Origin: Blastocatellia bacterium | Lineage (GTDB): Bacteria > Acidobacteriota > Blastocatellia > UBA7656 | Direction: 5' to 3' | Assembly: GCA_963765495.1 (NCBI GenBank) | Contig: CAVXWP010000001.1 | Location: 1,248,715 to 1,312,714 of the forward strand | DNA length: 64,000 nucleotides | Part shown: positions 9,121 to 25,248 of the stretch, piece by piece | Layout of the letters: the number at the start of each line of letters is the position of its first letter | Position numbering within the stretch: position 1 is the stretch's first letter | The notes under the pieces: generated by a model | Told to the model about the DNA's origin: nothing | Databases searched by the model: none | Seen by the model: only the letters and a program-made list of their open reading frames with translations | Position numbers and translations under genes: made by a program

Positions 9121-11208
<2,088 letters not shown>

Positions 11209-11217
11209 TAATCTCTC

Positions 11218-12489
11218 ATGCGTATTATTATTCTCAATCAATTCTTTTACCCTGATCATTCGGCCACGAGTCAGTTGATGACCGATCTGGCCGAAAACCT
11301 TGTCGAGCGTGGCGTAGATGTGACTGCGCTTGCCGGACGCGGGCGTTACAACGGCGGCGAACGACTCGCGCCGCGCGAGTCGCACAAGGGTATTCGCATC
11401 GAGCGGGCATGGGCTACGAGCTTTGGCAAGCAAAGCATGCTCGGCAGGCTTTCAGACTACCTGTCGTTTTATGTAGGGGCTTCGTGGAAGCTCATTCGCC
11501 TTCCGCGCCACGATATAGTTATGGCGCTTACGACCCCGCCCCTGATAGGACTTGTAGCTCTCATAATCGGTCGCCTTCGACGAATGCGAGTGGTTGCGCT
11601 CGTGCAGGATATCTATCCCGACATAGCCGTTGCGCTTGGGACGGTTCCGGCGCGAAACCCCGCGACAAAGCTTCTTGACGGGCTCAATCGGTTTATCCTG
11701 CGCGGGGCGGATCGAATAATCGTTCTGAGCGAATGCATGCGCGACCGCATAACGAAAAAGATCGAAGGCGCTCTTTCGCGCATAGATGTCATTCATAACT
11801 GGGCAGACGGGTCGAAGATCAGCCCGCTTGGAGAAGAAGAAAACGCCTTTGCCTCCGAGCATAACTCCGAGGGGAAGTTTGTCGTTCTATTCTCGGGGAA
11901 TTTCGGAAAGGTCAACGAGTTTCAGACCGTACTCGATGCCGCTCTCGTGTTGCGGGACCGCTCCGATATAGCTTTTCTCTTTATAGGCGAAGGTGCAAAA
12001 GCGAGCGAGATCAGACAGTTTTCCGACCGTCACAATCTCACAAATATCCGTCTGCTTCCTTATCAGCCCCGCGAGTCTTTGCGTCTCAGCTTAGCTGCGG
12101 GGCACGCCTCCCTTGTTACACTCGCGGATAATCTGGCCGGTCTCAGCGTGCCGAGCAAAACCTACGGCATTCTTGCGGCGGCCCGGCCCATACTCTTTGT
12201 CGGCGATAGCCGCAGCGAGATAGCGCGCCTCATTTTGGAAAACGACTGTGGTGCAGTAGTAGCCGCCCAACAGAGCGTCCGCCTCGCTCAAATCATATCG
12301 GATTGGGAATCTGATCGGACAAGACTCGAACGGATGGGCGCGGCGGCTCGTTCCTTGTTTGACCGCCGTTTCGACCGGCCCCACGCGGTTAGAGCTTATC
12401 TGGAATCCTTCGCAAAATGCATGGATGCCACCCCTCGTCGCCTGACGAGCGCTCTTGTAAAAAGAGCGGAGCATCGAGGAACTCTGTAA
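11218..12489 (+). CDS. Glycosyltransferase, GT4 family (WcaI-like)
   Basis: 423 aa. MRIIILNQFFYPDHSATSQL N-terminus and SVPSKTYGILAAARPILFVGD, typical of WcaI-type GT4 enzymes. Confidence 0.75.
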   Translation: MRIIILNQFFYPDHSATSQLMTDLAENLVERGVDVTALAGRGRYNGGERLAPRESHKGIRIERAWATSFGKQSMLGRLSDYLSFYVGASWKLIRLPRHDIVMALTTPPLIGLVALIIGRLRRMRVVALVQDIYPDIAVALGTVPARNPATKLLDGLNRFILRGADRIIVLSECMRDRITKKIEGALSRIDVIHNWADGSKISPLGEEENAFASEHNSEGKFVVLFSGNFGKVNEFQTVLDAALVLRDRSDIAFLFIGEGAKASEIRQFSDRHNLTNIRLLPYQPRESLRLSLAAGHASLVTLADNLAGLSVPSKTYGILAAARPILFVGDSRSEIARLILENDCGAVVAAQQSVRLAQIISDWESDRTRLERMGAAARSLFDRRFDRPHAVRAYLESFAKCMDATPRRLTSALVKRAEHRGTL

Positions 12490-12522
12490 AAGAGAATAGC
12501 CTTTCAAGAAAGGGTATAGAGT

Positions 12523-14109
12523 ATGTCATTTATATTCCTCACTGCCTTTGTTTGCTCGCTCCTGCTTTCGTTCGTCCTTACGCGCTATGTGCGTAACCTG
12601 GCGGTCGCTCGCGGGTGGGCGGCGACTCCTCCCATGCCGCATCACATTCATGCCAACCCCATACCCAGATTGGGAGGAGTGGGCATCTATCTCTCCGTCG
12701 CTTTGATTACGGGCCTGATGTTAGTTGGAGCGAAGCTGTTCAATTATGATATAGGCCCCATACAACATCGCGCGCTCTACATCCTTCTTGCGGGTACTAT
12801 AGTTTTTGTGCTTGGGTTTTACGATGATATTTATTCGGTTAGTCCTTACATAAAATTTGCGACACAGACTCTTGGCGCATTGGTGCTATATTTATCGGGG
12901 ATTCATGTGGGCGGTTTGCCGCCTCTTTTAGGCGGCTATGATCCGGGCTGGTGGTTGTCCCTGCCTCTAACAATTCTCTGGGTCTTATGGATTACAAATG
13001 CCTTCAATCTGATCGACGGGATTGACGGGCTCGCAGCCGGATCGGCGTTGTTTTCAACCCTGACAGTCTTTGTCATAGCATTGATTAGCGGCAACAACAT
13101 GACCTCGCTACTAGCCATCATTATGGGCGGCGCGATACTCGGTTTCCTTCGATTCAATTTCAACCCGGCGACTATTTTCTTAGGGGACTGCGGAAGCCTG
13201 TTTCTGGGATTTATGTTAAGCGCGCTCGCACTCGTCGGATCGCAGAAAGCCTCTACCGTGTTTGCCGTAGCCGTGCCGGTAGTCTCATTCGGACTGCCTG
13301 TGCTTGAAACGCTGATTTCCATCGCGCGTCGCTTCCTTAGCGGAAAGCCGCTGTTTTCGCCCGACCGCGATCACATACATCACAAGTTGCTTGATAGAGG
13401 TTTGTCTCAACGTCAGGTCGTGATAACCCTTTACGGGGTCTCAGCCATTTGCGGGTTATTGAGCCTTTTTCTTCTGGCTCCCGGCGGCGCTCCCGTGGCA
13501 GTAGTACTTTTCGTGCTGGGTGCGGGCATCTGGATAGGAGTCCAGCACCTCGGCTATCACGAGTTTTACGAACTCCGTAGAGTTGCCAATCGCACCATGA
13601 GCCAGAAGCGGATCATTGTAAACAACCTGTCTATCAGACGTGCAGTGGCAGAACTGCCGAAAGCTGAAAACCTCCTCGATCTTTGCTCAATACTTGAAAC
13701 TGCGTTTGAAAGCAATGATTTTGATAGCTTCCACCTCAGTCTCGCGCCCCGTGCCGCCGGGACACAGTTTATGACTGATGACCCTGAACTTACAGGTAGG
13801 CATAATTATATCTGGCACAAGCCAGCGGGAGGCAGAAGCATAGACACAGAATCCTTGCCCCACTGGACGCTTGTACTTCAATTGATGACAAAGGAAGGAT
13901 CGAACGGCTATTTCCTGCTCTACCGCGCCAGCAACGAACGCCCGCTACTGGTTGACGTAAATCTGCTTACATTAGAATTTCAAGTTGCCTTGTCTAAGGC
14001 GGTCGATCGCATAGTTGCTAAACCTAAGCGACAGCAGGTGATGAAGCAGTCGTCGCTGGTACAGGGGAAAGCCGTGGCCTTTGTGCCTGAAGTAATTAGC
14101 AAGTCATAA
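12523..14109 (+). CDS. Polyprenyl-phosphate sugar-1-phosphate transferase, MraY/WecA family, with a ~180-aa C-terminal extension
   Basis: 528 aa and multi-pass hydrophobic. NAFNLIDGIDGLAAG and FLGDCGSLFLGF motifs of glycosyltransferase family 4 (MraY/WecA). Residues ~345-528 are soluble with no motif I recognise. Confidence 0.8.
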   Translation: MSFIFLTAFVCSLLLSFVLTRYVRNLAVARGWAATPPMPHHIHANPIPRLGGVGIYLSVALITGLMLVGAKLFNYDIGPIQHRALYILLAGTIVFVLGFYDDIYSVSPYIKFATQTLGALVLYLSGIHVGGLPPLLGGYDPGWWLSLPLTILWVLWITNAFNLIDGIDGLAAGSALFSTLTVFVIALISGNNMTSLLAIIMGGAILGFLRFNFNPATIFLGDCGSLFLGFMLSALALVGSQKASTVFAVAVPVVSFGLPVLETLISIARRFLSGKPLFSPDRDHIHHKLLDRGLSQRQVVITLYGVSAICGLLSLFLLAPGGAPVAVVLFVLGAGIWIGVQHLGYHEFYELRRVANRTMSQKRIIVNNLSIRRAVAELPKAENLLDLCSILETAFESNDFDSFHLSLAPRAAGTQFMTDDPELTGRHNYIWHKPAGGRSIDTESLPHWTLVLQLMTKEGSNGYFLLYRASNERPLLVDVNLLTLEFQVALSKAVDRIVAKPKRQQVMKQSSLVQGKAVAFVPEVISKS

Positions 14110-14370: not shown

Positions 14371-16239
14371 TTACTCCCGCGCCTTGAGTCTCGCTTTGAG
14401 ATCGAAGTCCGGTGTCCTGATTGCGCCAATCAGATTCTGTGCTATGCACAAATCTCGAAACCGGCCATTCTGCTTTGCCATTAGGGAATTGCCGTTACCT
14501 GATTCGACCAAACGCCCTCCTTCAAGCACATAGACCATGTCCGCATTGAGAATAGTTGAAAGCCTGTGGGTTATTATCAGGATGGTTATGCGGCCATGAA
14601 GATTCTCTATCGCGCCTTGAATGCGTCTCTCATTTTCGGAATCAAGTGCGCTGGTCGCTTCATCCAGGATCAATAGCGAAGGCTTGCGTAGGATCGCTCT
14701 TGCTAAAGCCAGTCTTTGCCTTTCCCCGCCTGAAAGCCGCGCGCCGCGATCCCCCAGAATCGTTTCTATTCCCTCTGGCAGTGCCGAAACAAAATCTTCT
14801 GCTGCCGCAAGCCTTAAAGCCTTATTAATCTCTTCGTCGCTTGCCAGGGGGCAGGCCCAGACAAGATTAGCCCGCACAGTGTCGTGAAATAAGAAGGTGT
14901 CTTGCGTGACATAGCCTATCTGGTCCCGCCAGCTTGCAGCGCACCCGGCTCTGAGAGGCGTCCTGTCAATCAAGACGCAGCCTTCGGTAGGAGTCACCAG
15001 TCCAATGATAAGGTCTGCAATCGTACTCTTGCCCGCGCCCGAAGGCCCGACAATAGCGGTCGTCTGGCCTGCGGGGATATCCAAGCTGAGATCGCAGATT
15101 ATATCCTTCCCGTCTTCGTCATATCTGAATGATACATTTTCCAGTTGTAATGAATCAGTCAGAGAGACTCCCTGTGTCTCAGCTACCTTGTTTTCAGAAG
15201 CGGCTTCGCACCTTTCCTGCATCTTTTTTACCGTAGCAAACGAAGGCAGCAGGTTTATAAATTGCTGGTAGTTTTGTTGAATGTTTGAGAGTCTCGGCAT
15301 GATACGGGCAAATACGAACAGCAGCAAAAGCACTTCTGCGGTTGGGAGCGAGAGCACCTTGAAGGCGATGTAAACGATCAGGCTTAAGACAAGAACTGAC
15401 CCTATCTCGAACCATAATCTCAAATCGGCGTAATCGCGTGTTCCCTCAACGCTGACTTTCGTCACCCGTTCGATCAGCGAGGAAAACATTCTTCCAGTTC
15501 GCTCTTCGGCGTTATAGCTCTTTATCGTTTTTAATGCGCCCAGATGCTCTATTGTCGCGGCATACATCTCGTTGCTGATTCTTGAGTACTCCTCGCCGTT
15601 TACACGCGAAGCCCGAACCTTTCCCTTGAGCAGAAACAACAGCGCCGCCCCGCAGGCAAATACGAGTGCCGACATCGCTGTCGAAAGACGAACGGCCAGA
15701 GCGATATAGACCAGGGCTATCGTGGAATTAGATATCAGAAATAAGAGACTGTAGGTTGCCGAGTAAACGCGGTCGAGTTCTGATGTAAGAGCGTGAGTGA
15801 AATCCGAGGCCCGGCTTTTTGAAAGGAATATCCACCCGGCATTCATTATTGCCTCGTATATCTGCCGCCGCAGATGATCCACGAATTCGTAACCGAGCGC
15901 GAGACTCGAAATGGTTTGCCGACGGGACAACAGCGCGTGCGAGCAGGTTATCGCTATGTAGATAAAGAGAACCGTGATCAAAGTTGGGTGCAATCCGGTG
16001 GCCGCAAAAAAAGAAGATGCGATTTCGGCAAGGCGGCCTATGTTGCCTTGCTGCACATCCAGGCCCACGAGTCCCATCAGCGGCAACAGCAAAAGCAACC
16101 CTATGCCTTCGGTCAGGCCAACCAGGATCATCAGCCCCAGCACGATCAGCACCCTCCACCGAAGGGTATCGAGCAGGGTTGCCGTATAGGATCCAAGCAA
16201 ACCGCGCCCGTCCGCAGATTCAGCTTTCTTTTCCACCAT
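14371..16239 (-). CDS. ABC exporter (fused permease plus ATPase), probable lasso-peptide exporter (McjD-like)
   Basis: 622 aa. N-terminal half is transmembrane. Walker A GPSGAGKST, signature LSGGERQR, Walker B LLILDEATSALD. It is the last gene of the lasso cluster. Confidence 0.8.
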   Translation of the reverse strand: MVEKKAESADGRGLLGSYTATLLDTLRWRVLIVLGLMILVGLTEGIGLLLLLPLMGLVGLDVQQGNIGRLAEIASSFFAATGLHPTLITVLFIYIAITCSHALLSRRQTISSLALGYEFVDHLRRQIYEAIMNAGWIFLSKSRASDFTHALTSELDRVYSATYSLLFLISNSTIALVYIALAVRLSTAMSALVFACGAALLFLLKGKVRASRVNGEEYSRISNEMYAATIEHLGALKTIKSYNAEERTGRMFSSLIERVTKVSVEGTRDYADLRLWFEIGSVLVLSLIVYIAFKVLSLPTAEVLLLLFVFARIMPRLSNIQQNYQQFINLLPSFATVKKMQERCEAASENKVAETQGVSLTDSLQLENVSFRYDEDGKDIICDLSLDIPAGQTTAIVGPSGAGKSTIADLIIGLVTPTEGCVLIDRTPLRAGCAASWRDQIGYVTQDTFLFHDTVRANLVWACPLASDEEINKALRLAAAEDFVSALPEGIETILGDRGARLSGGERQRLALARAILRKPSLLILDEATSALDSENERRIQGAIENLHGRITILIITHRLSTILNADMVYVLEGGRLVESGNGNSLMAKQNGRFRDLCIAQNLIGAIRTPDFDLKARLKARE

Positions 16240-16255: not shown

Positions 16256-17449
16256 TCAGTCCTCGCGCCTTATTATTCTCTGCATGTATTTTGTGGCCAG
16301 CCTGAGGGGGCGCAAGAAATAATAGAGTAAAGAGATGGAAGAAGGCAGGCTCAATAGCTCCCATTCGAGAGGAGTTGGGACCGCATTGTCGAGGATCAAT
16401 CTGGCCTTATCGCGCAACCGCTTCATCGTTTTTATATAGAAAAGGTCTTCTTCAAAAAACCATGCCCGGCCATCTACCTCTCGAAAGAGCTTTGCGCCTG
16501 CCTCTGCCGCGAGTGGTTTTACGATTGGGTCGGTTTGAGTTTCCCTCAAGACATCGTCGGGGACATCGGCCTCAAGCATCTCATAGGCGAGCAGGATGCC
16601 GAGAAAGAGCATGCGTTCGCTGCCTGCGGCTCTTGCCTGTTTGATCATCTGCGCCCAGTTCATTTGTTCGTATGTCCGGGTGAGTTCGGCCAGATCGCAT
16701 ATCCAGTTCAAATGCTTCCAGGCGTGTTTTGCCCCGTGCACGCATAAGAGTAGAAACAAATCTTCGGAAGAGAGAGTTGGAACCCTGGCTCCATCCATAG
16801 AGATATGCTCGATCCGCTTCCAGTAATCCTCGGGGTCGGGCGCGAATGTGTACCTCGTAGGCACGATTGACCAGTGAAGATCAACCGTCGTCATCCAGTT
16901 CTCGGTTCCGAAAGCATGCTCGCATCGGAACTCGATGAGGGAAGCCTCCTGCTCGCGGGTAAGATCGAATTGCGGCTCGAACCCGGTTGAGCTTAATAGC
17001 TCGCTGATCTTTGGAACATCTGACTTGCGCACCAGAATGTCAAGATCGAGGAATTGCCTGAGCGCGATGTCTCCGTAAACGCTCCGGGCAAGGATCGGCC
17101 CCTTGAAGGGGATCGCCTCGATGCCGTGAGATTCGACAAGCTTCAGAAGTTTTATCAATTCGTTGGTCAGAAAAAGATTGTATCCTGTATTAAAATGAAA
17201 TTGCTCTCGAAGCCGGAGCAGAACCTGTTCGGGAATCTGCTCAGGGCAAATGGCTTTGAGGTGATAATACAGAAGCGGCATCACTGCGTGCCTGAAAGCC
17301 ATCGCCGACAGGTAATCCCAATCTATTTCTTGCTTGAGTAAAGACCTGATTCGATCAGCTTTTTCAGTCGTCATGCGCGCCCGCGTGCAGCAGATAAGAA
17401 TTTCAACTTCGGGGCGCGCGCCGATTGTAGTGATGCTTATAGATTTCAT
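16256..17449 (-). CDS. Nucleotidyltransferase-family protein (lasso-cluster associated)
   Basis: 397 aa. The LDLDILV motif and overall pattern match the uncharacterised nucleotidyltransferase family that accompanies HPr-kinase-like genes in lasso clusters. Confidence 0.6.
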   Translation of the reverse strand: MKSISITTIGARPEVEILICCTRARMTTEKADRIRSLLKQEIDWDYLSAMAFRHAVMPLLYYHLKAICPEQIPEQVLLRLREQFHFNTGYNLFLTNELIKLLKLVESHGIEAIPFKGPILARSVYGDIALRQFLDLDILVRKSDVPKISELLSSTGFEPQFDLTREQEASLIEFRCEHAFGTENWMTTVDLHWSIVPTRYTFAPDPEDYWKRIEHISMDGARVPTLSSEDLFLLLCVHGAKHAWKHLNWICDLAELTRTYEQMNWAQMIKQARAAGSERMLFLGILLAYEMLEADVPDDVLRETQTDPIVKPLAAEAGAKLFREVDGRAWFFEEDLFYIKTMKRLRDKARLILDNAVPTPLEWELLSLPSSISLLYYFLRPLRLATKYMQRIIRRED

Positions 17450-17549: not shown

Positions 17550-18698
17550 CTATCGGCTGTATTTTAGCGATAAATCGCCGATCCTGCTCAGGGCGTCGTG
17601 CGAAGTCTTGAAGCGAGCGGGAAATCTATCTGAAATCCGGCGCGCGATTTCGTCGAGTGAAGTTTGCCCATCCATCTCGGAGAGGATAAAGCGATCTATC
17701 TCGCCTTCTTCATCGAGCGCGGGCGCATAGTTTGAGGCGCGTTTGCGGAGCCGAGCCGGAGACAAAGGCGCGCCGAAAAAGGTTGATTGTTTGAAATCGG
17801 CTTTTACGGCCCGGGGATCATTCTGATCAAGGATGCGAGTGTTCCAGCGCCAGATGTAATCCTCTTCTACAAGATCGCCTTGCAGGATAAGAGAAACTCT
17901 GTCGTCAGCGGCAATAGCTACCGGTTCATACAAGGGAAATAAGGCATTGCCGTAGATGAGTTCAGGCTCGCCGGGGGCATTGGAAAAGCCCACCCCTTCT
18001 ATTAAAGAGGCGTCAAACCATGCGATTATTGCGTGCGCGGTTCCCGCCCGCTTCGCGGTCCAGACAAGTTCTGCGCTTACATCAGGGTTTTCTATGGTGT
18101 TGTAATCGAGCGTGGCCCAGCATTGCGGTTCAAGTAAGAGTTGTTCTGGCCTGACGCGACTCTTCCTCCAGGTATTGACCACGATTTTATGGGCCGCGCG
18201 CATATCGAGGCCGTAGTCATTGGCTCTCCAAGGGATTTTGTATTGATCGTATAAATCAGGCGCGTCAACAACAGAGGCCCACATCGTATCGCGCAGTGGA
18301 ATCAGCGTGCCGCCGGGCACGAGCAGCCTCTTGCGCGCATCAATTAACGAAGGAATGTGATTCTGAAAAAAAGAGAGTACGCCGCGCATATCAGAGACAA
18401 TAACATCAGCCTGTTCGGGCAAGGTTATTCGAGTTGATAAATCCTGGATAAACTCGATGCGTCCGTCGAGTTCGTTAGCAGCGGCGATCTCTTTAGCTAT
18501 TTGAATGGCATCATCCGGCTCAACCCCGTAGACGCGGCGAGCGCCGAATTGACAGGCGAGCATGGCGAAGATTCCAGTGCCTGTGCCTATGTCGAGCACC
18601 ACCGCGCCGGGTTTGATCGCCTGACGTAACGCCTGAACATAGCCGCTCATGCGCGCACTGTCGGTGATCATTTTTCCATAGGCGGATATAGTATACAT
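17550..18698 (-). CDS. Class-I SAM methyltransferase with PRMT-like architecture and a PqqD/RRE-like C-terminal tail
   Basis: 382 aa. [20 protein letters not shown] plus [28 protein letters not shown] parallels the PRMT1 N-terminus and motif I. The double-E loop position reads [14 protein letters not shown]. The tail [24 protein letters not shown] resembles PqqD. Confidence 0.6.
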   Translation of the reverse strand: [382 protein letters not shown]

Positions 18699-18699
18699 T

Positions 18700-19710
18700 T
18701 TAACCCTGTTCGGCCCCCGCGCAGATCAAAGCAGGTTGTGTCAAAGTCTGAAAATCATCAATCAATACATCGCATAGTTTTGACAGATACGCCGGGTTCG
18801 TATGAGGGATCGCTCGCCGCACCGGCACACCTTCAATAATACGATTCAGCAATTCGAACTCCTGAGCGCGCCTTATCTTATCCAAGAGATAATTTGTATA
18901 GGTGTTTGCGATTAAGCTGATCAGTGTTTCCCTGGAGGCTACAGCTTCGACGAAGGGAGCCCTCGGATCATCAATCCGGTTGGAGAGAATGTAAATCGCG
19001 GCAAGAGGGAGCGGGTGTCGCTGAAAATGGTAGCCTTCTTTTGTCAGATCCAGATACCGTTTATCCCAGGTGGGGGTCAGTCGCGGAAGGGCTTCGGACG
19101 AACCGTACAGGACATTGACCGATTCAGGCCATAGGCGAACGCGCGGATATGCTGGTTGAACCAGGAAGTGATCGCCCATATCGGAAAGCACAGTGACATC
19201 ATCCGATAAAACCGAATAACCCAGTTCTCCAAATGCCGCGGCAGTTGTTGATTTGCCCGCGCCCGCCGCGCCGAGCAAAACAATTGCCTGATCGCCTACA
19301 GCAATCGCGCTGGCGTGCATGCAGGTGACGCCGCGCAGGCGCAGCACGAATCCGAGCACCGGGCCGAGCAGGTAGGTAGCCGTATCTTCAAGCGTCAGAT
19401 CATCCGGCCATCTGGCCCATATCTCTGTTCCTGATTTATCAACGATAAATTCGGTCCCGTCGCCGTAAAGCAGGCGAAAATAACCTCCATCCACTTCCCA
19501 CACTCTTAAAGTCGGGCGGTCTTGCTCATCTCTACTCGTGGTGACATACCAAATCTGCTGAGAGACACAGGTCGGGTCGTCCATCCACGAAGGCATCAGT
19601 CCCAACCATACCCGCACATCCGTATGTGACACCCTCGCCTGAGCAATCGGCCCTGGTATAGGCAGGTTTGCACAGATTCTCAACCCATAGGCAAAATAAT
19701 GTAATGCCAT
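18700..19710 (-). CDS. HPr-kinase-related kinase (lasso-peptide kinase-like)
   Basis: 336 aa. MHASAIAVGDQAIVLLGAAGAGKSTTAAAF is the HprK C-terminal-domain P-loop pattern. Located directly downstream of the precursor gene. Confidence 0.7.
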   Translation of the reverse strand: MALHYFAYGLRICANLPIPGPIAQARVSHTDVRVWLGLMPSWMDDPTCVSQQIWYVTTSRDEQDRPTLRVWEVDGGYFRLLYGDGTEFIVDKSGTEIWARWPDDLTLEDTATYLLGPVLGFVLRLRGVTCMHASAIAVGDQAIVLLGAAGAGKSTTAAAFGELGYSVLSDDVTVLSDMGDHFLVQPAYPRVRLWPESVNVLYGSSEALPRLTPTWDKRYLDLTKEGYHFQRHPLPLAAIYILSNRIDDPRAPFVEAVASRETLISLIANTYTNYLLDKIRRAQEFELLNRIIEGVPVRRAIPHTNPAYLSKLCDVLIDDFQTLTQPALICAGAEQG

Positions 19711-19845: not shown

Positions 19846-19995
19846 CTACGCTGTTTTAGTTTCCATGCCCAAACCGCCATCACCCGCTACCTTTGCCATG
19901 CCCACGTTCTGTGTTATCTCGCGGATGTTGCCATAGGCAACCATCTCGGGGCTTTTATATGCCTTTCCTGGTTGGTTCTCATCCTGTGACTTCAT
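19846..19995 (-). CDS. Lasso-peptide precursor (49 aa): MKSQDENQPGKAYKSPEMVAYGNIREITQNVGMAKVAGDGGLGMETKTA
   Basis: ATG at 19995 preceded by GAAGGAGAAATACT. The start lies 17 nt inside the 3' end of the cyclase gene. The leader fits Y-x2-P-x-(L/M)-x3-G-x5-T-x. Confidence 0.7.
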   Translation of the reverse strand: MKSQDENQPGKAYKSPEMVAYGNIREITQNVGMAKVAGDGGLGMETKTA

Positions 19996-21856
19996 AGTAT
20001 TTCTCCTTCTGTGCTTCGCATCTGGCCGACTCAATCGATTGTAGCCAGTTATTCAAACTGAGCGGGCGTAAATTAATCCATGCCTTGTAGGGGTCCTCTT
20101 CTCTAAATACATTGCCCATTGCTGCTCTGTCAACGTATTTATTCAATTCCGGCTCAGGAACGAACCAATCAACCCATTGTGCATCGGGTTGGCGTAGAGC
20201 TTCAACATAGGGGAAGCCGGCCAGCGGTGACTTCGGACGCCGCCGCACGGATTCAGGTAATACGTCACGCATTGAGGCGCGGAGTAATTCCTTTTTCACA
20301 CACCAGGGAACAGGCGGAAGCGATAGGAAATAATCTATCAACCGAAGATCAAGCAATGGATGCCGGTGCTCGATTGGAAAACTTGTTATGCCCGCATCGT
20401 GGCTCTCTAAAAGGCTCGACCAGAGGGCCGTTGATGTTAAGACTCTATAGGCATAAGGGCGGACAGGATGGTTCGACGGCGGATAGGAACTCAGTTGTTG
20501 CCATCGAGTAGCCAGATCTAATTGTTTCGCAAGAGCCTGATTTATCCAGACTGGATATGTCGGCTCTAGCTGCGGGGTTTGCCTCCCCATCAAACGACCG
20601 AGCTTGTCTCGAAAGCCGAGCGGTATAATTCTGCGCTGGGAAATGGCGTACCTGGCTGTGTTTATCACAAGTCGTCCGAATTGCCTGTCTTTGAGTAAAG
20701 ATCGAAGGTAGGGCTTTGGTGACTCGTTCAGAACCGTATCCCCGTCCCACCCCGTCAGCCCGACACGGCTATGAGCCGCCTGTAGTTTTGATTGATCGAC
20801 AGATATCGCGGGTTGCGGATCATTGACAGGTTCAGGGCGGCGAAATTCGGGGTTGTCCCAGTTTTCATATAGCTTGTAGTCGTCTCCTGCGATGTAATCT
20901 ATAAGGATGCCCAGTCTTTCTGCCGCCAGTCCTGAGTAGTATCGCTCTTCGTCGGGAATCACTCTGTCATAGACTACTGCATAGGCTCGCAGGTCATAGC
21001 AGGCGGACTGCTCCGAAAGCAGTTTAACGGCTGTTGCTGCTATAGCCGTTGAGTCCAGCCCGCCACTCATTGAAACGCTGACCCGGTCAGTCCGCAGCCG
21101 ATCATTTACCGCTGTTTGCAATAGCTCTCTAAAATGCTCGACATAATCATTTGCGCGGCGGTATCGAATGCGGCTGTCTGCGGGCAAAGCCCAATATCGC
21201 TTCAATCGTTGGGTTCCATCCGCCCACGTTAAACAGTGTGCGGGTGGCAGTCGCTGAATGTCGGCAAAGGTCGTCGTGGATGGCTCCTGGTTAGAGTCAA
21301 ACAGCAGAAAATCTGCGATGGCTAAATCATTCAATTCATCCGAAACCGCCGGGTGCATTCGCACGCAGTTCAACGTGTTGCTGAATATCAGATGACCGCG
21401 CACCTGAGCGTGATAAAAGGGCTTTACCCCGAAATGATCGCGTGCGCAAAACAGGCTCCGCTTTCGGCTGTCCCAGATGGCAAAGGCGAAATCGCCTATA
21501 AGATGCTCGACACACTCTTCGCCCCAGACCTCGTAGGCCCGCAAAATAAGCTCTACGTCGGTTACTCCCTCAAGCTTTATTGATCCTTTGGATTCCAGTT
21601 TCCCGATCAATTCCGAGCGGCCATCTACTCGCGCATCCGCCGTTATCCAGACTCCCCCGTCCAGACTGAATGGCTGATGCTCGCGCTCGGATTCAAACGT
21701 AGTCCGCAGCATCGTGTGGCCGAAGCCTATATTGCCGTCAATCCAGATTTCCTGAGCGTCGGGGCCGCGATAGGCCATAAACCCCGTCATCCGCCGCAAC
21801 AGTTGTCTGTCAACAGGTGCGCCGTCCAGGTTGATGATGCCAAGAATGCCGCTCAT
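19979..21856 (-). CDS. Lasso-peptide macrolactam synthetase (asparagine-synthetase-like, C protein)
   Basis: 625 aa. N-terminus is MSGILGI (Ser replaces the AsnB catalytic Cys2). PP-loop SMSGGLDS. ATGA overlap with the B2 gene. Confidence 0.85.
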   Translation of the reverse strand: MSGILGIINLDGAPVDRQLLRRMTGFMAYRGPDAQEIWIDGNIGFGHTMLRTTFESEREHQPFSLDGGVWITADARVDGRSELIGKLESKGSIKLEGVTDVELILRAYEVWGEECVEHLIGDFAFAIWDSRKRSLFCARDHFGVKPFYHAQVRGHLIFSNTLNCVRMHPAVSDELNDLAIADFLLFDSNQEPSTTTFADIQRLPPAHCLTWADGTQRLKRYWALPADSRIRYRRANDYVEHFRELLQTAVNDRLRTDRVSVSMSGGLDSTAIAATAVKLLSEQSACYDLRAYAVVYDRVIPDEERYYSGLAAERLGILIDYIAGDDYKLYENWDNPEFRRPEPVNDPQPAISVDQSKLQAAHSRVGLTGWDGDTVLNESPKPYLRSLLKDRQFGRLVINTARYAISQRRIIPLGFRDKLGRLMGRQTPQLEPTYPVWINQALAKQLDLATRWQQLSSYPPSNHPVRPYAYRVLTSTALWSSLLESHDAGITSFPIEHRHPLLDLRLIDYFLSLPPVPWCVKKELLRASMRDVLPESVRRRPKSPLAGFPYVEALRQPDAQWVDWFVPEPELNKYVDRAAMGNVFREEDPYKAWINLRPLSLNNWLQSIESARCEAQKEKYYEVTG

Positions 21857-22323
21857 TTGTCTCTTGCCTCTGCCGATGCTATGTCGCGGTCGAATGGAGA
21901 AAAACGCATTTCAACATCCTGGCTGTCGTTTAGAGCAAGGTCCATAAACTCAACCCAGGCATGAGCCTCCATCCGCCCCGCCTCTTTGCGTGCGCCGAAG
22001 CGCAGGCGGCTTTCAATCCGCCGCCGTCGCAGTAGCCACCATAAAATCAGGGATTCTTGCAAACAATTAGCGCGATACGGCCCCCACCGGGAAGCGATTC
22101 TCACTATCCTTGCCACCATCCGGGCTTTCTCGATCAATTTCTCGTTTTGTTCCTGCGGGATTTTTTTATCAACGGGCGATAAACGCAATAGAGCAGATTG
22201 CCAGCGATTGAATCCCACCACTCGCAACGCAGCGCCTGTGAGTGGAAACATAGGGAGAGCCTGCGCAAGCAATCGCCACTCTGGCAATGAAAGCTGCCGA
22301 GCCTTTTGCCACTTACCCGGCAT
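21853..22323 (-). CDS. Lasso-peptide leader protease B2 (transglutaminase-like Cys protease)
   Basis: 156 aa. RANCLQESL (Cys) and EAHAWVEF (His) match the B2 family pattern. Overlaps the B1 gene by 11 nt. Confidence 0.8.
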   Translation of the reverse strand: MPGKWQKARQLSLPEWRLLAQALPMFPLTGAALRVVGFNRWQSALLRLSPVDKKIPQEQNEKLIEKARMVARIVRIASRWGPYRANCLQESLILWWLLRRRRIESRLRFGARKEAGRMEAHAWVEFMDLALNDSQDVEMRFSPFDRDIASAEARDK

Positions 22324-22594
22324 TTATCTCCACTAATCCCTGTTCCGTCAATCTGCCGATCAGGTCCATTAAATCCTGTCGCAGCAGTTGCTCATCCACA
22401 TCATATTCATCAAGTAAAATCTCGTAAGCCGCCTGAATGGAATCGCTTGTTGTGAGAAGCGCCCACATGCGAGTCCCTATCTCGTCAAGGCCAAAGTAGC
22501 GCTCGCTTATCAAATTGAGAATGACCGATTCGCCGCCAACCGTGGAGACCAATACATCTGATGGCACTAATACACGTTTCTGAAATGCTTTCAT
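22313..22594 (-). CDS. PqqD-family RiPP recognition element (lasso B1)
   Basis: Start moved to the ATG at 22594 (MKAFQKRVLVPSD...), preceded by AGAGGAATC. ESVILNLISERYFGLDEIGTRMWALL...AYEILLDEYDVD...LMDLIGRLTEQGLV is the PqqD pattern. Confidence 0.8.
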   Translation of the reverse strand: MKAFQKRVLVPSDVLVSTVGGESVILNLISERYFGLDEIGTRMWALLTTSDSIQAAYEILLDEYDVDEQLLRQDLMDLIGRLTEQGLVEINAG

Positions 22595-22868
22595 GATTCC
22601 TCTTGCGAACACTCAACTTCCCTGTATTTTGGATTTGCCTGAATTGTGGGCTATCCCCTGCACCCTTTGAATGATGATATCTTGCCATCGTTCCTAATGA
22701 AAAGGCAAATCAAGTTTGAGGCTATTGCTCACAAGAACCTTTTTCGTTGCTTTACTTACATAGAATTTCGGCCAAGATTTGGTGCTCGCCTGTACGCTAC
22801 GTAAAGGAATCTAAAGAGCCGGATACAAACCGGCTAAGGCGCGGCACGGCTTTAGTAAAAACAAGAGT

Positions 22869-24102: not shown

Positions 24103-25248
24103 TTATTGATTATCGGTACGGGCGGGTTCGCCCGGTTGCCCGTCCGCATAGATTCCTCGCCTTACGCGCACCTTTAAATCGGTCCTTGTGCTGTAAACCT
24201 TTATCAAGTGAAATTTCGTATCCTCCGGGCTGCGCTCGGATGAATAGGCGATGACGTACTCGGAGCCAATCTCTTCAATAATCTGATCCCTGATCTCTTC
24301 ACAATCAATCGTATGAATGACCTGACCCGGCTCCGCCATTGCCCCGCCGTAGTGATTCTGAGAGTCCGCGCAATCGATGCGCTGCTCGAAATCCCAGACC
24401 TTTCCCCCGGTCTCCTCCGCAAGCGTTTGAAGAGGCTCTTGACCGGCTTCAAGCTCGCCAACGTATCGCTGAAGTAGTTCATGCATTTTACGAGCGACGG
24501 GATCGAGCCGCTTTATAACAGGCAATGGCTTCTCAACCTTTGGCTTCAATTCATGAAGCAGCATCGCCGCCTGACTGACAACATAGACAGTGGCCCGAGC
24601 GCGATGCATGGCCTTGAGCGCTTCCTCAAAGGAGGATTGCGAAGATGTATCGACACCGTCGGTCATTAATACCACGCTGCGCCGCCCTGTAATCTTCAGC
24701 AGAAGATCATCGGCTGCGCGGGTCAATGAATCGTACAGGCGCGGGTTCGGTCGCGGCCTGAAATTCCAATCAAGAGCCTTTCTGAGCGCGGCTCGATCAT
24801 CGGTCCACGACGACAGCAATTCCACTTTGTCAGCGTAGGAAATCAGAGCGACCCTGTCTTCTTTACCAAATGACTCGATGAGTTTCCACGCAAGTTCCCG
24901 ATGGATGTTGATGTTTTTGAGCGTGGTCAGGTCGCCGCTGCTGTCAAGAATGAGAAGAATATTGGCGGGAGTACGCAGGATGGAAGTGATCTGCTGGCGC
25001 TTATCGTCTTCGGTGACGATGACATCAGCGTGATCCAGCCGTGTGGGCAGTTTGCCGAGCGCGCCTTGAATGCTGACCGGAAGAAGAACCTCTTCGGTGC
25101 GGAGACGAACGGGTGTGTTATCATCCCCCGCTTGTGGCGCAGGCTTTTTTTTCTGCATACGTCCGCTTTGAGCCCTCGCGGATAACCCTGCGACAGCAAT
25201 AATACAAATTACGAGTAGAACCTGGATTTTTAGAGCTTGCCTTACCAT
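24103..25248 (-). CDS. Secreted von Willebrand factor A (VWA) domain protein
   Basis: 381 aa. N-terminal signal peptide (LLVICIIAVAGLSARAQS) and a MIDAS-like LILDSSGDL. Confidence 0.7.
   Translation of the reverse strand: MVRQALKIQVLLVICIIAVAGLSARAQSGRMQKKKPAPQAGDDNTPVRLRTEEVLLPVSIQGALGKLPTRLDHADVIVTEDDKRQQITSILRTPANILLILDSSGDLTTLKNINIHRELAWKLIESFGKEDRVALISYADKVELLSSWTDDRAALRKALDWNFRPRPNPRLYDSLTRAADDLLLKITGRRSVVLMTDGVDTSSQSSFEEALKAMHRARATVYVVSQAAMLLHELKPKVEKPLPVIKRLDPVARKMHELLQRYVGELEAGQEPLQTLAEETGGKVWDFEQRIDCADSQNHYGGAMAEPGQVIHTIDCEEIRDQIIEEIGSEYVIAYSSERSPEDTKFHLIKVYSTRTDLKVRVRRGIYADGQPGEPARTDNQ

Follow-up and report, generated by a model that had tools for sequence, protein, structure and literature searches.

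To our knowledge, protein arginine methyltransferases (PRMTs) are seen as enzymes essentially of eukaryotes that carry out a single reaction, the methylation of arginine, and we know of no PRMT-fold enzyme that methylates lysine. The lasso peptide methylations that we are aware of are the formation of a C-terminal ester and the methylation of Asp leading to aspartimide. StspM and LasF perform C-terminal carboxyl O-methylation, TceM and LihM are PIMT homologues giving the aspartimide, and lassomycin carries a C-terminal methyl ester. Clusters of the paeninodin/pseudomycoidin type encode an HprK-like kinase together with a PF14907 protein and, as reviews describe them, contain no PRMT-fold methyltransferase. 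The lasso literature to mid-2026 yielded no description of a PRMT-fold enzyme such as the one analysed here, and the expectation of an activity without a described lasso counterpart holds over that literature. The cluster type itself has been cloned by others from soil metagenomes, and its product was not obtained (PMC12670498).

The window analysed here is a stretch of 64,000 nucleotides from a Blastocatellia bacterium (Acidobacteriota). It carries a lasso cluster in the order B1-B2-C-A-K-M-N-D, with the following genes (positions within the window):

22313..22612, minus strand: gene B1, stand-alone PqqD/RRE protein (PF05402, 52.5 bits, cut-off 23.4)
21853..22323, minus strand: gene B2, leader peptidase (NF033537, 84.5 bits, cut-off 33)
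19979..21856, minus strand: gene C, lasso macrolactam cyclase (NF033535, E 1.8e-122; Asn_synthase)
19846..19995, minus strand: gene A, 49-aa lasso precursor (NF033528 and NF033521 sub-threshold; homologous precursors in 40+ loci)
18700..19710, minus strand: gene K, HprK-like kinase (TIGR04352 and Hpr_kinase_C, both weak)
17550..18698 (stop codon included), minus strand: gene M, open reading frame of a 382-aa PRMT-fold SAM-dependent methyltransferase, D-type
16256..17449, minus strand: gene N, NTP_transf_5 nucleotidyltransferase-like protein (PF14907, E 9.6e-68)
14371..16239, minus strand: gene D, ABC exporter (ABC_tran and ABC_membrane)

Precursor, B1, B2 and C are all present, with matches to NF033536, NF033537 and NF033535, a leader motif and an Asp acceptor, which confirms the lasso RiPP setting that the first-pass annotation had assigned to M. 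The cluster resembles the paeninodin/pseudomycoidin type in its HprK-like kinase, its PF14907 protein and a Ser/Thr at or near the core C-terminus. Cores of the window type differ in the Lys that precedes the Thr/Ser and in the up to three residues that may come after it. K and M meet at a TAA-a-ATG junction and are translationally coupled; across loci the gap between them has a median of 19 nt, with overlapping genes in 15/45. K and the core lasso genes adjoin M in 52 of the 65 genome loci, which come from several phyla, and the D-type family is found in Acidobacteriota, Cyanobacteria, Chloroflexota and others. Four orphan M homologues lie amid housekeeping genes.

By sequence and by structural model, the PRMT likeness of M is far above chance. 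PRMT1 is the best PDB match in a phmmer search (E 1e-29), the top entry being 1orh, the PRMT1 mutant E153Q. The Pfam families PRMT_C (PF22528; 41.2 bits, cut-off 27, covering residues 138-271) and PrmA (49.8 bits) both match. The AF2 model has a pLDDT of 88, and Foldseek superposes it on PRMT1 with a TM of 0.86-0.88 and an rmsd of 2.3-2.4 Å over ~313 columns. The earlier reading of the minus-strand frame 17550..18698 as a 382-aa protein with a PRMT fold is thus borne out by Pfam, phmmer, AF2 and Foldseek alike, and its three alignments of M with PRMT1 were recovered with HMMER, including the pair LVPGGTLIP / LAPDGLIFP. Upstream of its C-terminal tail, M is built as follows:

18294..18698, minus strand: residues 1-135, N-terminal helices and Rossmann SAM-binding domain (PRMT1 alignment)
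17784..18293, minus strand: residues 136-305, PRMT beta-barrel with dimerisation arm (PF22528, AF2 strands, Foldseek)
17724..17783, minus strand: residues 306-325, linker with pLDDT 54-63 (AF2) and a single helix at 314-323, C-terminal to a conserved strand

Like the type-I PRMTs (PRMT1/Hmt1, PRMT6, PRMT2, PRMT8), M joins a Rossmann domain to a beta-barrel with dimerisation arm, the latter recognised by both PF22528 and Foldseek, and shares with them the equivalent of Met48, motif I with the post-I Glu and, on helix alphaY, the Arg contacting the SAM carboxylate. Motif I, the post-I E60 and the alphaY R16 align with PRMT1 as expected of a class-I Rossmann domain. The SAM-binding residues are near invariant among 178 M homologues (G38/G40/G42 in 178/178, E60 in 175/178, R16 in 177/178), and K299, A300, F302, Q304, S305, T306 and F307 are conserved in the homologue alignment. 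M departs from the type-I PRMTs in an extra strand and a ~70-aa helical C-terminal extension, in its bacterial origin and RiPP-cluster location, and in a probable substrate devoid of Arg. Some databases label the homologues as PrmA, the ribosomal protein L11 methyltransferase. The Pfam PrmA match, however, spans only profile positions 152-257 of 296 and the NCBIfam PrmA equivalogs give 31-42 bits against cut-offs of 183-269, and a housekeeping PrmA or PRMT was rejected on model scores and synteny. A methyltransferase of the PIMT or StspM type was likewise rejected, as PF01135 (PCMT) reaches 16.1 bits (cut-off 20.3) over residues 12-61 only, at the SAM motif, and the Pfam search returned no O-methyltransferase family. 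M resembles StspM/LasF and TceM/LihM as a SAM-dependent enzyme of lasso tailoring, but it differs from them in fold and family and probably also in chemistry.

The substrate pocket of M is remodelled at two sites that define the PRMT active site:

18357..18395, minus strand: residues 102-114, equivalent of the double-E loop
17952..17960, minus strand: residues 247-249, L-I-Y at the position of the THW loop (PRMT1 alignment)

The first loop reads S102-D103-M-R-G-V-L-S-F-F-Q112, and the alignment places D103 and Q112 opposite E144 and E153 of PRMT1. Instead of the two invariant Glu of PRMTs, the family has Asp at the first position (176/178) and a variable residue at position 112 (Q in 96, R in 25, E in 21, G in 13, D in 8 and A in 7 of the 178). 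Position 105 is R in 155 and H in 14 of the homologues. The THW loop is replaced by L247-I248-Y249, where Y249 is kept in 170/178, I248 in 155/178 and L247 in 149/178. The D-type signature consists of S-D-(L/I/M)-R-G at 102-106, Pro109 (176/178), Phe111 (143/178) and E-L-I-Y-G at 246-250. The altered double-E loop and the missing THW, both noticed in the window protein at first reading, are accordingly conserved throughout the 178 homologues. The near invariance of pocket signature and SAM motifs indicates selection on an active site.

An uncharacterised sister family of PRMT-fold enzymes, here termed E-type, helps to interpret this pocket. Examples are L018:4193-5419, L022:5689-6903 and L068:8001-9212. 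E-type proteins are ~28-30% identical to M, belong to the same Pfam fold families and occupy the same slot after the HprK-like kinase (B1-B2-C-A-K-M-D-N), as seen in L066, L068-L071 and L073. Their loop, S-E-x-x-G-x-E-x-x-x-E, aligns with both Glu of Hmt1/PRMT1, and its three acidic Glu are present in 109/114, 96/114 and 109/114 sequences. Unlike M, the E-type thus retains both double-E Glu as well as the (H)W of THW; it also has a ~100-aa N-terminal extension and lacks the C-terminal tail. D-type and E-type are two PRMT-fold branches that fill one position, right behind the HprK-like kinase gene, in widespread B1-B2-C-A-K-M-(D)-N lasso clusters, and the two enzymes occur together in L018 and L022.

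The precursors divide along the same line. The window precursor MKSQDENQPGKAYKSPEMVAYGNIREITQNVGMAKVAGDGGLGMETKTA has a single Arg, which lies within the leader as had been pointed out before; the leader carries Y..P....YG.I.EIT and the predicted core NVGMAKVAGDGGLGMETKTA ends in K-T-A. A K-[ST]-x0-3 ending is present in 43 of the 52 precursors from D-type loci. With core boundaries predicted from the Thr(-2) rule only, Lys occurs in 49/52 and Arg in 13/52 D-type-associated cores. Where the D-type enzyme is the only one, 10/49 cores contain Arg and 39/49 are Arg-free, as opposed to 8/8 Arg-containing cores with the E-type (p 2.6e-5, from sequences that are not phylogenetically independent). 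Among the last 6 core residues, Arg is found in 5/6 E-type versus 6/49 D-type-only cores, and Lys in 2/6 versus 41/49. The leader Arg is not conserved across precursors. The earlier proposal of a non-arginine substrate for M is supported by this contrast with a sister that sits in the same slot, has kept the double-E pair and always faces cores with Arg.

We hold with moderate confidence that M, with its type-I PRMT fold, is a catalytically active SAM-dependent methyltransferase of peptides and tailors the lasso precursor A encoded upstream. The most likely reaction, judging from the peptide sequences, would be N-methylation of the conserved Lys near the peptide C-terminus and not of arginine. 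M would mono-, di- or trimethylate the epsilon-amine of the Lys in the C-terminal K-[ST] motif, most probably on the linear precursor, the stage at which StspM acts (PMC9266682). K would phosphorylate the Thr/Ser neighbouring this Lys, and N might decorate the phosphate further; both the methyl acceptor and the order of the K, M and N steps are our inference. Characterised lasso kinases, including those of the paeninodin/pseudomycoidin type, require only a C-terminal Ser and show little sequence dependence (PMC8498205), so that the kinase does not account for the conserved Lys.

Alternatively, M could methylate an oxygen nucleophile common to all peptides, either the C-terminal carboxylate or a phosphate or phospho-sugar that K and N attach, while the Lys would serve the kinase or bioactivity. 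Three D-type-associated cores are free of Lys (L011b, with Arg instead and R-T for K-T, L032 and L050). Nine precursors do not end in K-[ST], yet the active-site loop of their M proteins looks no different, so that the acceptor could be a group shared by all peptides. The absence of covariation between the active-site loop and the presence of a K-[ST] ending also weakens the case for recognition of Lys or phospho-Thr by M. K, M and N travel together, M is coupled to K, and StspM/LasF set a precedent by forming the C-terminal methyl ester on linear lasso precursors (PMC9266682). In the substrate loop, the conserved R105 lies beside D103 and could accommodate a negatively charged group, for example a phosphate or carboxylate. 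An invariant Asp in the pocket would nevertheless be odd for an anionic acceptor, and oxygen methylation leaves unexplained why C-terminal Arg goes with the E-type and C-terminal Lys with the D-type. The known lasso carboxyl methyltransferases have other folds, and their families are represented in the searches of M by no more than the low PCMT score. We consider methylation of an oxygen rather unlikely.

The C-terminal tail raises the separate matter of how M might find its substrate:

17553..17723, minus strand: residues 326-382, three-helix tail of M, a truncated wHTH resembling PqqD in its helical half

The first-pass annotation had proposed a PqqD/RRE domain here. The helical part of that proposal finds support, weak and sub-threshold throughout, in several signals that agree with each other. 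AF2 places helices at 330-341, 348-358 and 366-381, forming a three-helix bundle as in PqqD, and a model of the tail alone has a pLDDT of about 89-92 over the helices. The order and spacing of the helices correspond to alpha1-alpha3 of PqqD/RRE proteins (PF05402; PqqD 3g2b; the lasso B1 protein TfuB1, 6jx3), and the tail motif LMDG..SL.EIA follows the shared signature (L)(M)DG..(S/T)(L).EIA. Among Pfam families, the M-family tails most often match PF05402 (19 of 45 tails at E<=0.1, lowest E 8e-4); the register does not vary, and the matches are limited to profile positions 21-50 of 67. Its gathering score of 23.4 bits is reached by 0/45 tails, the window tail scoring 14.4-14.9 bits, and full-length M gives no PqqD match in Pfam at E<=0.1. 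Foldseek ranks PqqD 3g2b first among PDB matches of the tail model (E 0.46, prob 0.97, TMq 0.52) and lists, at rank 18, 6jx3_B, a structure of lasso B1 with bound leader. A profile of 30 tails retrieved nothing significant from PDB sequences, with 3g2b at E 0.16.

Were the tail a functional RRE able to bind the leader by itself, M would depend on the leader and not on B1, and these matches would be in line with such a role. It might also fit the E-type sister, which has its N-terminal extension instead; this extension has no Pfam match even at E 10 and gives a weak hhalign match to B1 that keeps the register (E 0.0022). Against such a function, the tail corresponds to the helical half only. 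It has ~57 residues as compared with about 85-90 in PqqD, no beta-strand is predicted by AF2 in residues 306-382 of M, and the three-stranded sheet of PqqD is missing. In the solved RRE-leader complexes known to us, the leader pairs with strand beta3. None of the similarity scores passes its threshold. An hhalign comparison of 43 tails with the B1 family of the same loci found no similarity (prob 1%), and the tail is thus not a recent copy of the cluster B1. Unlike PqqD, the tail forms the C-terminal end of an enzyme and is dispensable in one subclade, being absent in 11/60 M homologues though the leaders of those clusters look alike and share the motif. The cluster, moreover, already encodes a stand-alone B1. 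Searching 1.84 billion representatives with the tail profile gave 1,144 matches, and all of the top 150 have the tail at the C-terminus of M-like proteins or fragments, with no other architecture or stand-alone RRE among them. A self-sufficient RRE is hence unlikely, and that part of the earlier proposal was not borne out. Sequence and model together indicate that the tail is a truncated PqqD-like module and not a demonstrated RRE. We suggest that it may be the three-helix remnant of a PqqD-type winged helix, which could provide M with an accessory docking site that contacts either the leader or a partner protein, for instance K or B1.

That M is still an arginine methyltransferase, acting on a core Arg, the leader Arg or a cellular protein, is very improbable. 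The overall PRMT fold and the PRMT1-like sequence would suit such an activity, as would the R-T in place of K-T in precursor L011b and the four orphan copies outside lasso clusters. Both guanidinium-binding Glu and the THW are lost family-wide, however, most D-type-only cores are free of Arg, and the one in the leader is not maintained. Arg-containing cores are served by a separate family with an intact double-E pair, and L018 and L022 encode both enzymes. A catalytically dead scaffold organising a K/N tailoring complex, as the loss of the canonical catalytic Glu pair and the tight coupling to K might suggest, is scarcely credible given SAM motifs and a new D-type pocket signature that are near invariant in 178 sequences.

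Returning to Lys N-methylation as the preferred reading, we tentatively propose that the PRMT fold was recruited twice in bacteria for RiPP tailoring. One branch would have remained an Arg methyltransferase, and the D-type would have been re-tooled for lysine or another non-guanidine acceptor, working with a kinase on a C-terminal Lys-Thr/Ser and carrying a truncated PqqD-like module. The M family is large, bacterial, embedded in lasso clusters and uncharacterised, with a consistently remodelled pocket; the tail profile alone retrieves >1,000 representatives at 50% identity. With lysine or some other group that is not a guanidine as acceptor, the family would widen the reaction scope of the PRMT fold, add a new tailoring step to lasso peptides and provide a natural E-type/D-type pair for the study of PRMT specificity. 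The cluster type cloned without a product (PMC12670498) gains a concrete hypothesis on the mass shifts to expect. Should the proposal prove true, these clusters would make the first N-methyl-lysine/phospho-threonine lasso peptides, and M would be the first enzyme of PRMT fold to methylate something other than arginine.

The methyltransferase gene under study, M, encodes a 382-aa protein and is the sixth gene in a co-directional, operon-like run of lasso peptide genes:

B1, 22313-22612: RRE protein (PqqD, 52.5 bits)
B2, 21853-22323: leader peptidase (NF033537)
C, 19979-21856: lasso cyclase (NF033535, E 1.8e-122)
A, 19846-19995, minus strand: 49-aa precursor
K, 18700-19710: HprK-related kinase (weak matches)
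M, 17550-18698, minus strand: PRMT-fold methyltransferase
N, 16256-17449: nucleotidyltransferase-like protein (PF14907 NTP_transf_5, E 9.6e-68)
D, 14371-16239: ABC exporter (ABC_tran and ABC_membrane)

The TAA stop of K and the ATG of M are separated by a single base. The public gene call (P0001) gives M 373 aa, starting at Met10. Residues 1-9 (MYTISAYGK; window 18672-18698) fit the conserved family N-terminus MY.I..YG., hence we prefer the longer form and consider the public call probably nine codons too short. The cluster flanks (9121-14109 and 24103-25248), read by eye, seem to encode a GDP-mannose 4,6-dehydratase, a GDP-fucose synthase, a glycosyltransferase and a WecA/MraY-type transferase on one side and a vWA-like secreted protein on the other.

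M has the fold of protein arginine methyltransferases (PRMTs). A phmmer search against all PDB sequences returned PRMTs only, with PRMT1 as the top match (E 1e-29, residues 10-259). Pfam detected PRMT_C (PF22528, 41.2 bits, cut-off 27), with PrmA covering the SAM-binding core only. The AlphaFold2 model (mean pLDDT 88, from 111 homologues) retrieved PRMT6, PRMT2, PRMT1 and PRMT8 from the PDB at E values of about 1e-27 with Foldseek, and superposed on PRMT1 with a target-normalised TM-score of 0.86-0.88 and an rmsd of 2.3-2.4 A. When 178 family members are aligned, the residues that bind SAM hardly vary (G38, G40 and G42 178/178, E60 175/178, R16 177/178), so M should be able to bind SAM. The substrate pocket is remodelled alike throughout the family. 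PRMT1 E144 corresponds to D103 in M (176 Asp, 2 Glu), followed two residues on by R105 (155 Arg, 14 His). The position of E153 is variable at residue 112 (Q 96, R 25, E 21, G 13, D 8, A 7), and the T-H-W motif is replaced by L247-I248-Y249 (Tyr in 170). The best-scoring PDB sequence is 1orh, the PRMT1 E153Q mutant, because M carries Gln at this position. The first-pass annotation had aligned three segments of M to PRMTs by hand and described an altered double-E loop; HMMER returned the same alignments, supporting the PRMT assignment, and the loop proved to be as described and shared across the family, not peculiar to this locus.

The family is large and tied to lasso clusters. With M as query, a word-indexed search gave 2,494 relatives (E<=0.001), of which the 120 top-ranked are full-length, 57-67% identical and mostly from Acidobacteriota metagenomes; a tail-only profile recovered 1,144 representatives at 50% identity. 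Scanning one genome per species yielded 65 M loci in Acidobacteriota (Blastocatellia, Pyrinomonadaceae), Cyanobacteria, Chloroflexota, Planctomycetota, Desulfobacterales, Binatia, Rokubacteria and others. M adjoins K and core lasso genes in 52 loci, in the order B1-B2-C-A-K-M-(D)-N. K and M are separated by a median of 19 nt and overlap in 15/45 loci. Among the other 13 loci, seven are truncated at the edge of a contig, L007 has K without a core lasso match, L063 has a lasso gene without a K match, and four are true orphans amid housekeeping genes. The orphan copies (L020:8001-9149, L039:7926-9152, L043, L058) carry the tail, and no lasso gene lies within 8 kb of them; the genes around them include those for GTP cyclohydrolase, CoaBC, PRPP synthetase and Leu/Phe-tRNA protein transferase. 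Such enzymes may act in trans or on a different substrate. Some clusters (L004:7347-7970, L010:7171-7947) hold an extra gene between K and M for a 2OG-Fe(II) oxygenase of about 207 aa (PF13640, E 8e-13), absent from the window, which suggests an added hydroxylation step. A Pyrinomonadaceae subclade (L047:4967-8945; also L042, L044, L048, L049, L052, L054 and L062) combines a tail-less M of 314-329 aa with a shorter cyclase (544 aa), no B2 gene between B1 and C, and almost identical precursors (NVGPKGNLDGGGGSAAGPKTGT).

The 52 precursors from M loci share the leader motif Y..P....YG.....T and a core with an Asp acceptor, usually followed by Gly-Gly. Lys occurs in 49 of these cores and Arg in 13. 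Most precursors (43/52) end in Lys then Thr or Ser (K-[ST]) plus 0-3 residues, as in DKT, TKT, KTG, KTGF or KTS, and the ending in the window precursor is ...ETKTA. The nine without this ending come mostly from clusters whose K is just 22-31% identical, and are often Pro-terminated. The active-site loop of M does not differ between clusters with and without the ending. Several loci with a divergent kinase-like gene (L025:6330-6512, L028:6689-6838, L034, L050, L023) have Met-rich precursors lacking K-T, one ending in eight Met then Pro (…GGKPMMMMMMMMP). Lasso leaders are usually cleaved after Thr(-2)-x; cut in this way, the window precursor (19846-19995, minus strand) would have Asn as residue 1 and Asp10 as its first acidic residue. 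A ring closed at Asp10 would be larger than any in described lasso peptides, to our knowledge. Many homologous precursors have Asp at core position 9 or 10. The first experimental case of Asn as residue 1, metanodin, dates from 2025 (PMC12670498).

A sister family provides a natural contrast. Besides M, L018 and L022 contain another PRMT-fold gene (28-30% identity to M), and in six further loci such a gene occupies the slot after K in lasso clusters (L018:4193-5419, L022:5689-6903, L066:8001-9215, L068:8001-9212, L069:8001-9209, L070:6001-7215, L071:6001-7218, L073:6001-7215). These E-type proteins (1,745 matches at E<=1e-10; about 404 aa) differ from the D-type family of M, with its Asp in place of the first Glu. 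They retain the double-E loop S-E-x-x-G-x-E-x-x-x-E (109/114, 96/114 and 109/114), aligned with both Glu of Hmt1/PRMT1, as well as the (H)W of THW. They lack the C-terminal tail and instead have an N-terminal extension of about 100 aa, which has no Pfam match and aligns weakly but in register with B1/PqqD (hhalign E 0.0022). Arg in E-type-associated cores often lies in RG/GR context or near the C-terminus. Arg is found anywhere in the core in 8/8 cores accompanied by an E-type gene versus 10/49 with D-type only (Fisher p 2.6e-5), and among the last six residues Arg occurs in 5/6 E-type-only versus 6/49 D-type-only cores (p 7e-4) and Lys in 2/6 versus 41/49 (p 0.017), p-values which overstate the case since the sequences are not phylogenetically independent. 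The pattern covers several phyla. Most simply read, these data pair the accessory methyltransferase with the basic residue near the core C-terminus, a canonical PRMT pocket going with Arg and the Asp pocket with Lys. This strengthens the earlier proposal of a non-arginine substrate for M. A divergent M-family member (L059:2775-3908, minus strand of the locus; 30% identity) combines a T-E-x-x-G…D-E loop with the same C-terminal helical tail, adjoins a tail-less D-type M, and belongs to a cluster with Arg in its core; possibly it stands midway between the two families.

M is thus a SAM-binding enzyme of PRMT fold with a remodelled pocket, a kinase gene as neighbour and a conserved K-[ST] in its precursor. 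We suggest that M methylates the epsilon-amine of the K-[ST] Lys, with D103 replacing the Glu pair as partner of the Lys ammonium group. K would phosphorylate the adjacent Thr/Ser, and characterised K relatives phosphorylate the C-terminal Ser of linear precursors (PMC8498205). N might then decorate the phosphate in the manner of PsmN (PMC9266682). R105 might interact with the phospho-Thr beside the Lys, or with the carboxylate at the C-terminus. As the chief alternative, M could O-methylate that carboxylate or the phosphate, a reading favoured by R105 in the pocket and by the few cores without Lys.

The tail (residues 326-382) might help dock M on the leader or a partner protein. Following the barrel, the AlphaFold2 model has an extra conserved strand, a linker modelled with low confidence, and helices at 330-341, 348-358 and 366-381; a tail-only model from 45 homologous tails gives the same helices (pLDDT about 90). 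In Pfam, these tails match PqqD (PF05402) most often (19/45 at E<=0.1, best 8e-4; next family 3/45). The matches always span profile positions 21 to 46 or 50 (of 67), and none reaches the gathering score of 23.4 bits. Among 350,542 PDB chains, Foldseek placed PqqD 3g2b first (E 0.46, prob 0.97, TMq 0.52) and the leader-bound lasso B1 structure 6jx3_B at rank 18; a tail profile search of PDB sequences gave 3g2b at E 0.16. The methods agree on kinship with PqqD, each signal being weak. The tail is about 57 residues long with no predicted beta-strand, its Pfam matches are limited to the helical half of the profile, and hhalign found no similarity to the B1 family from the same clusters. Furthermore, 11/60 homologues (314-329 aa) end directly past the barrel, and their precursors keep the same leader motif. 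The first-pass annotation had read the tail as the helical part of a PqqD/RRE domain that would dock on the leader, a proposal supported only in part; these results argue for a separable, PqqD-like three-helix module possibly able to bind the leader, and not for a complete RRE. The tail also fits well onto a helical stretch of Rv2067c, a lysine methyltransferase of M. tuberculosis (8hkr, Foldseek rank 3; rmsd 1.5 A over 43 columns), and weakly matches PF21782, 'PKMT C-terminal winged helix', which points tentatively to a connection with the accessory domains of lysine methyltransferases in bacteria.

Reviews to June 2026 describe two lasso methylations only, the C-terminal methyl ester formed by LasF/StspM and PIMT-type Asp methylation leading to aspartimide (PMC9266682, PMC8498205, PMC13352647). 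A full-text literature search found nothing relevant joining lasso peptides or RiPPs with arginine methyltransferases or PRMTs. Soil-metagenome lasso clusters with 'phospho- or methyltransferases' have been cloned and gave no product (PMC12670498). Public annotations call M relatives 'protein arginine N-methyltransferase 1' or '50S ribosomal protein L11 methyltransferase'. Neither name is supported, as the double-E and THW features of the former are missing and PrmA models score far under their cut-offs. M is predicted to be a RiPP tailoring methyltransferase of a large uncharacterised family, and the unusual chemistry predicted for it is testable.
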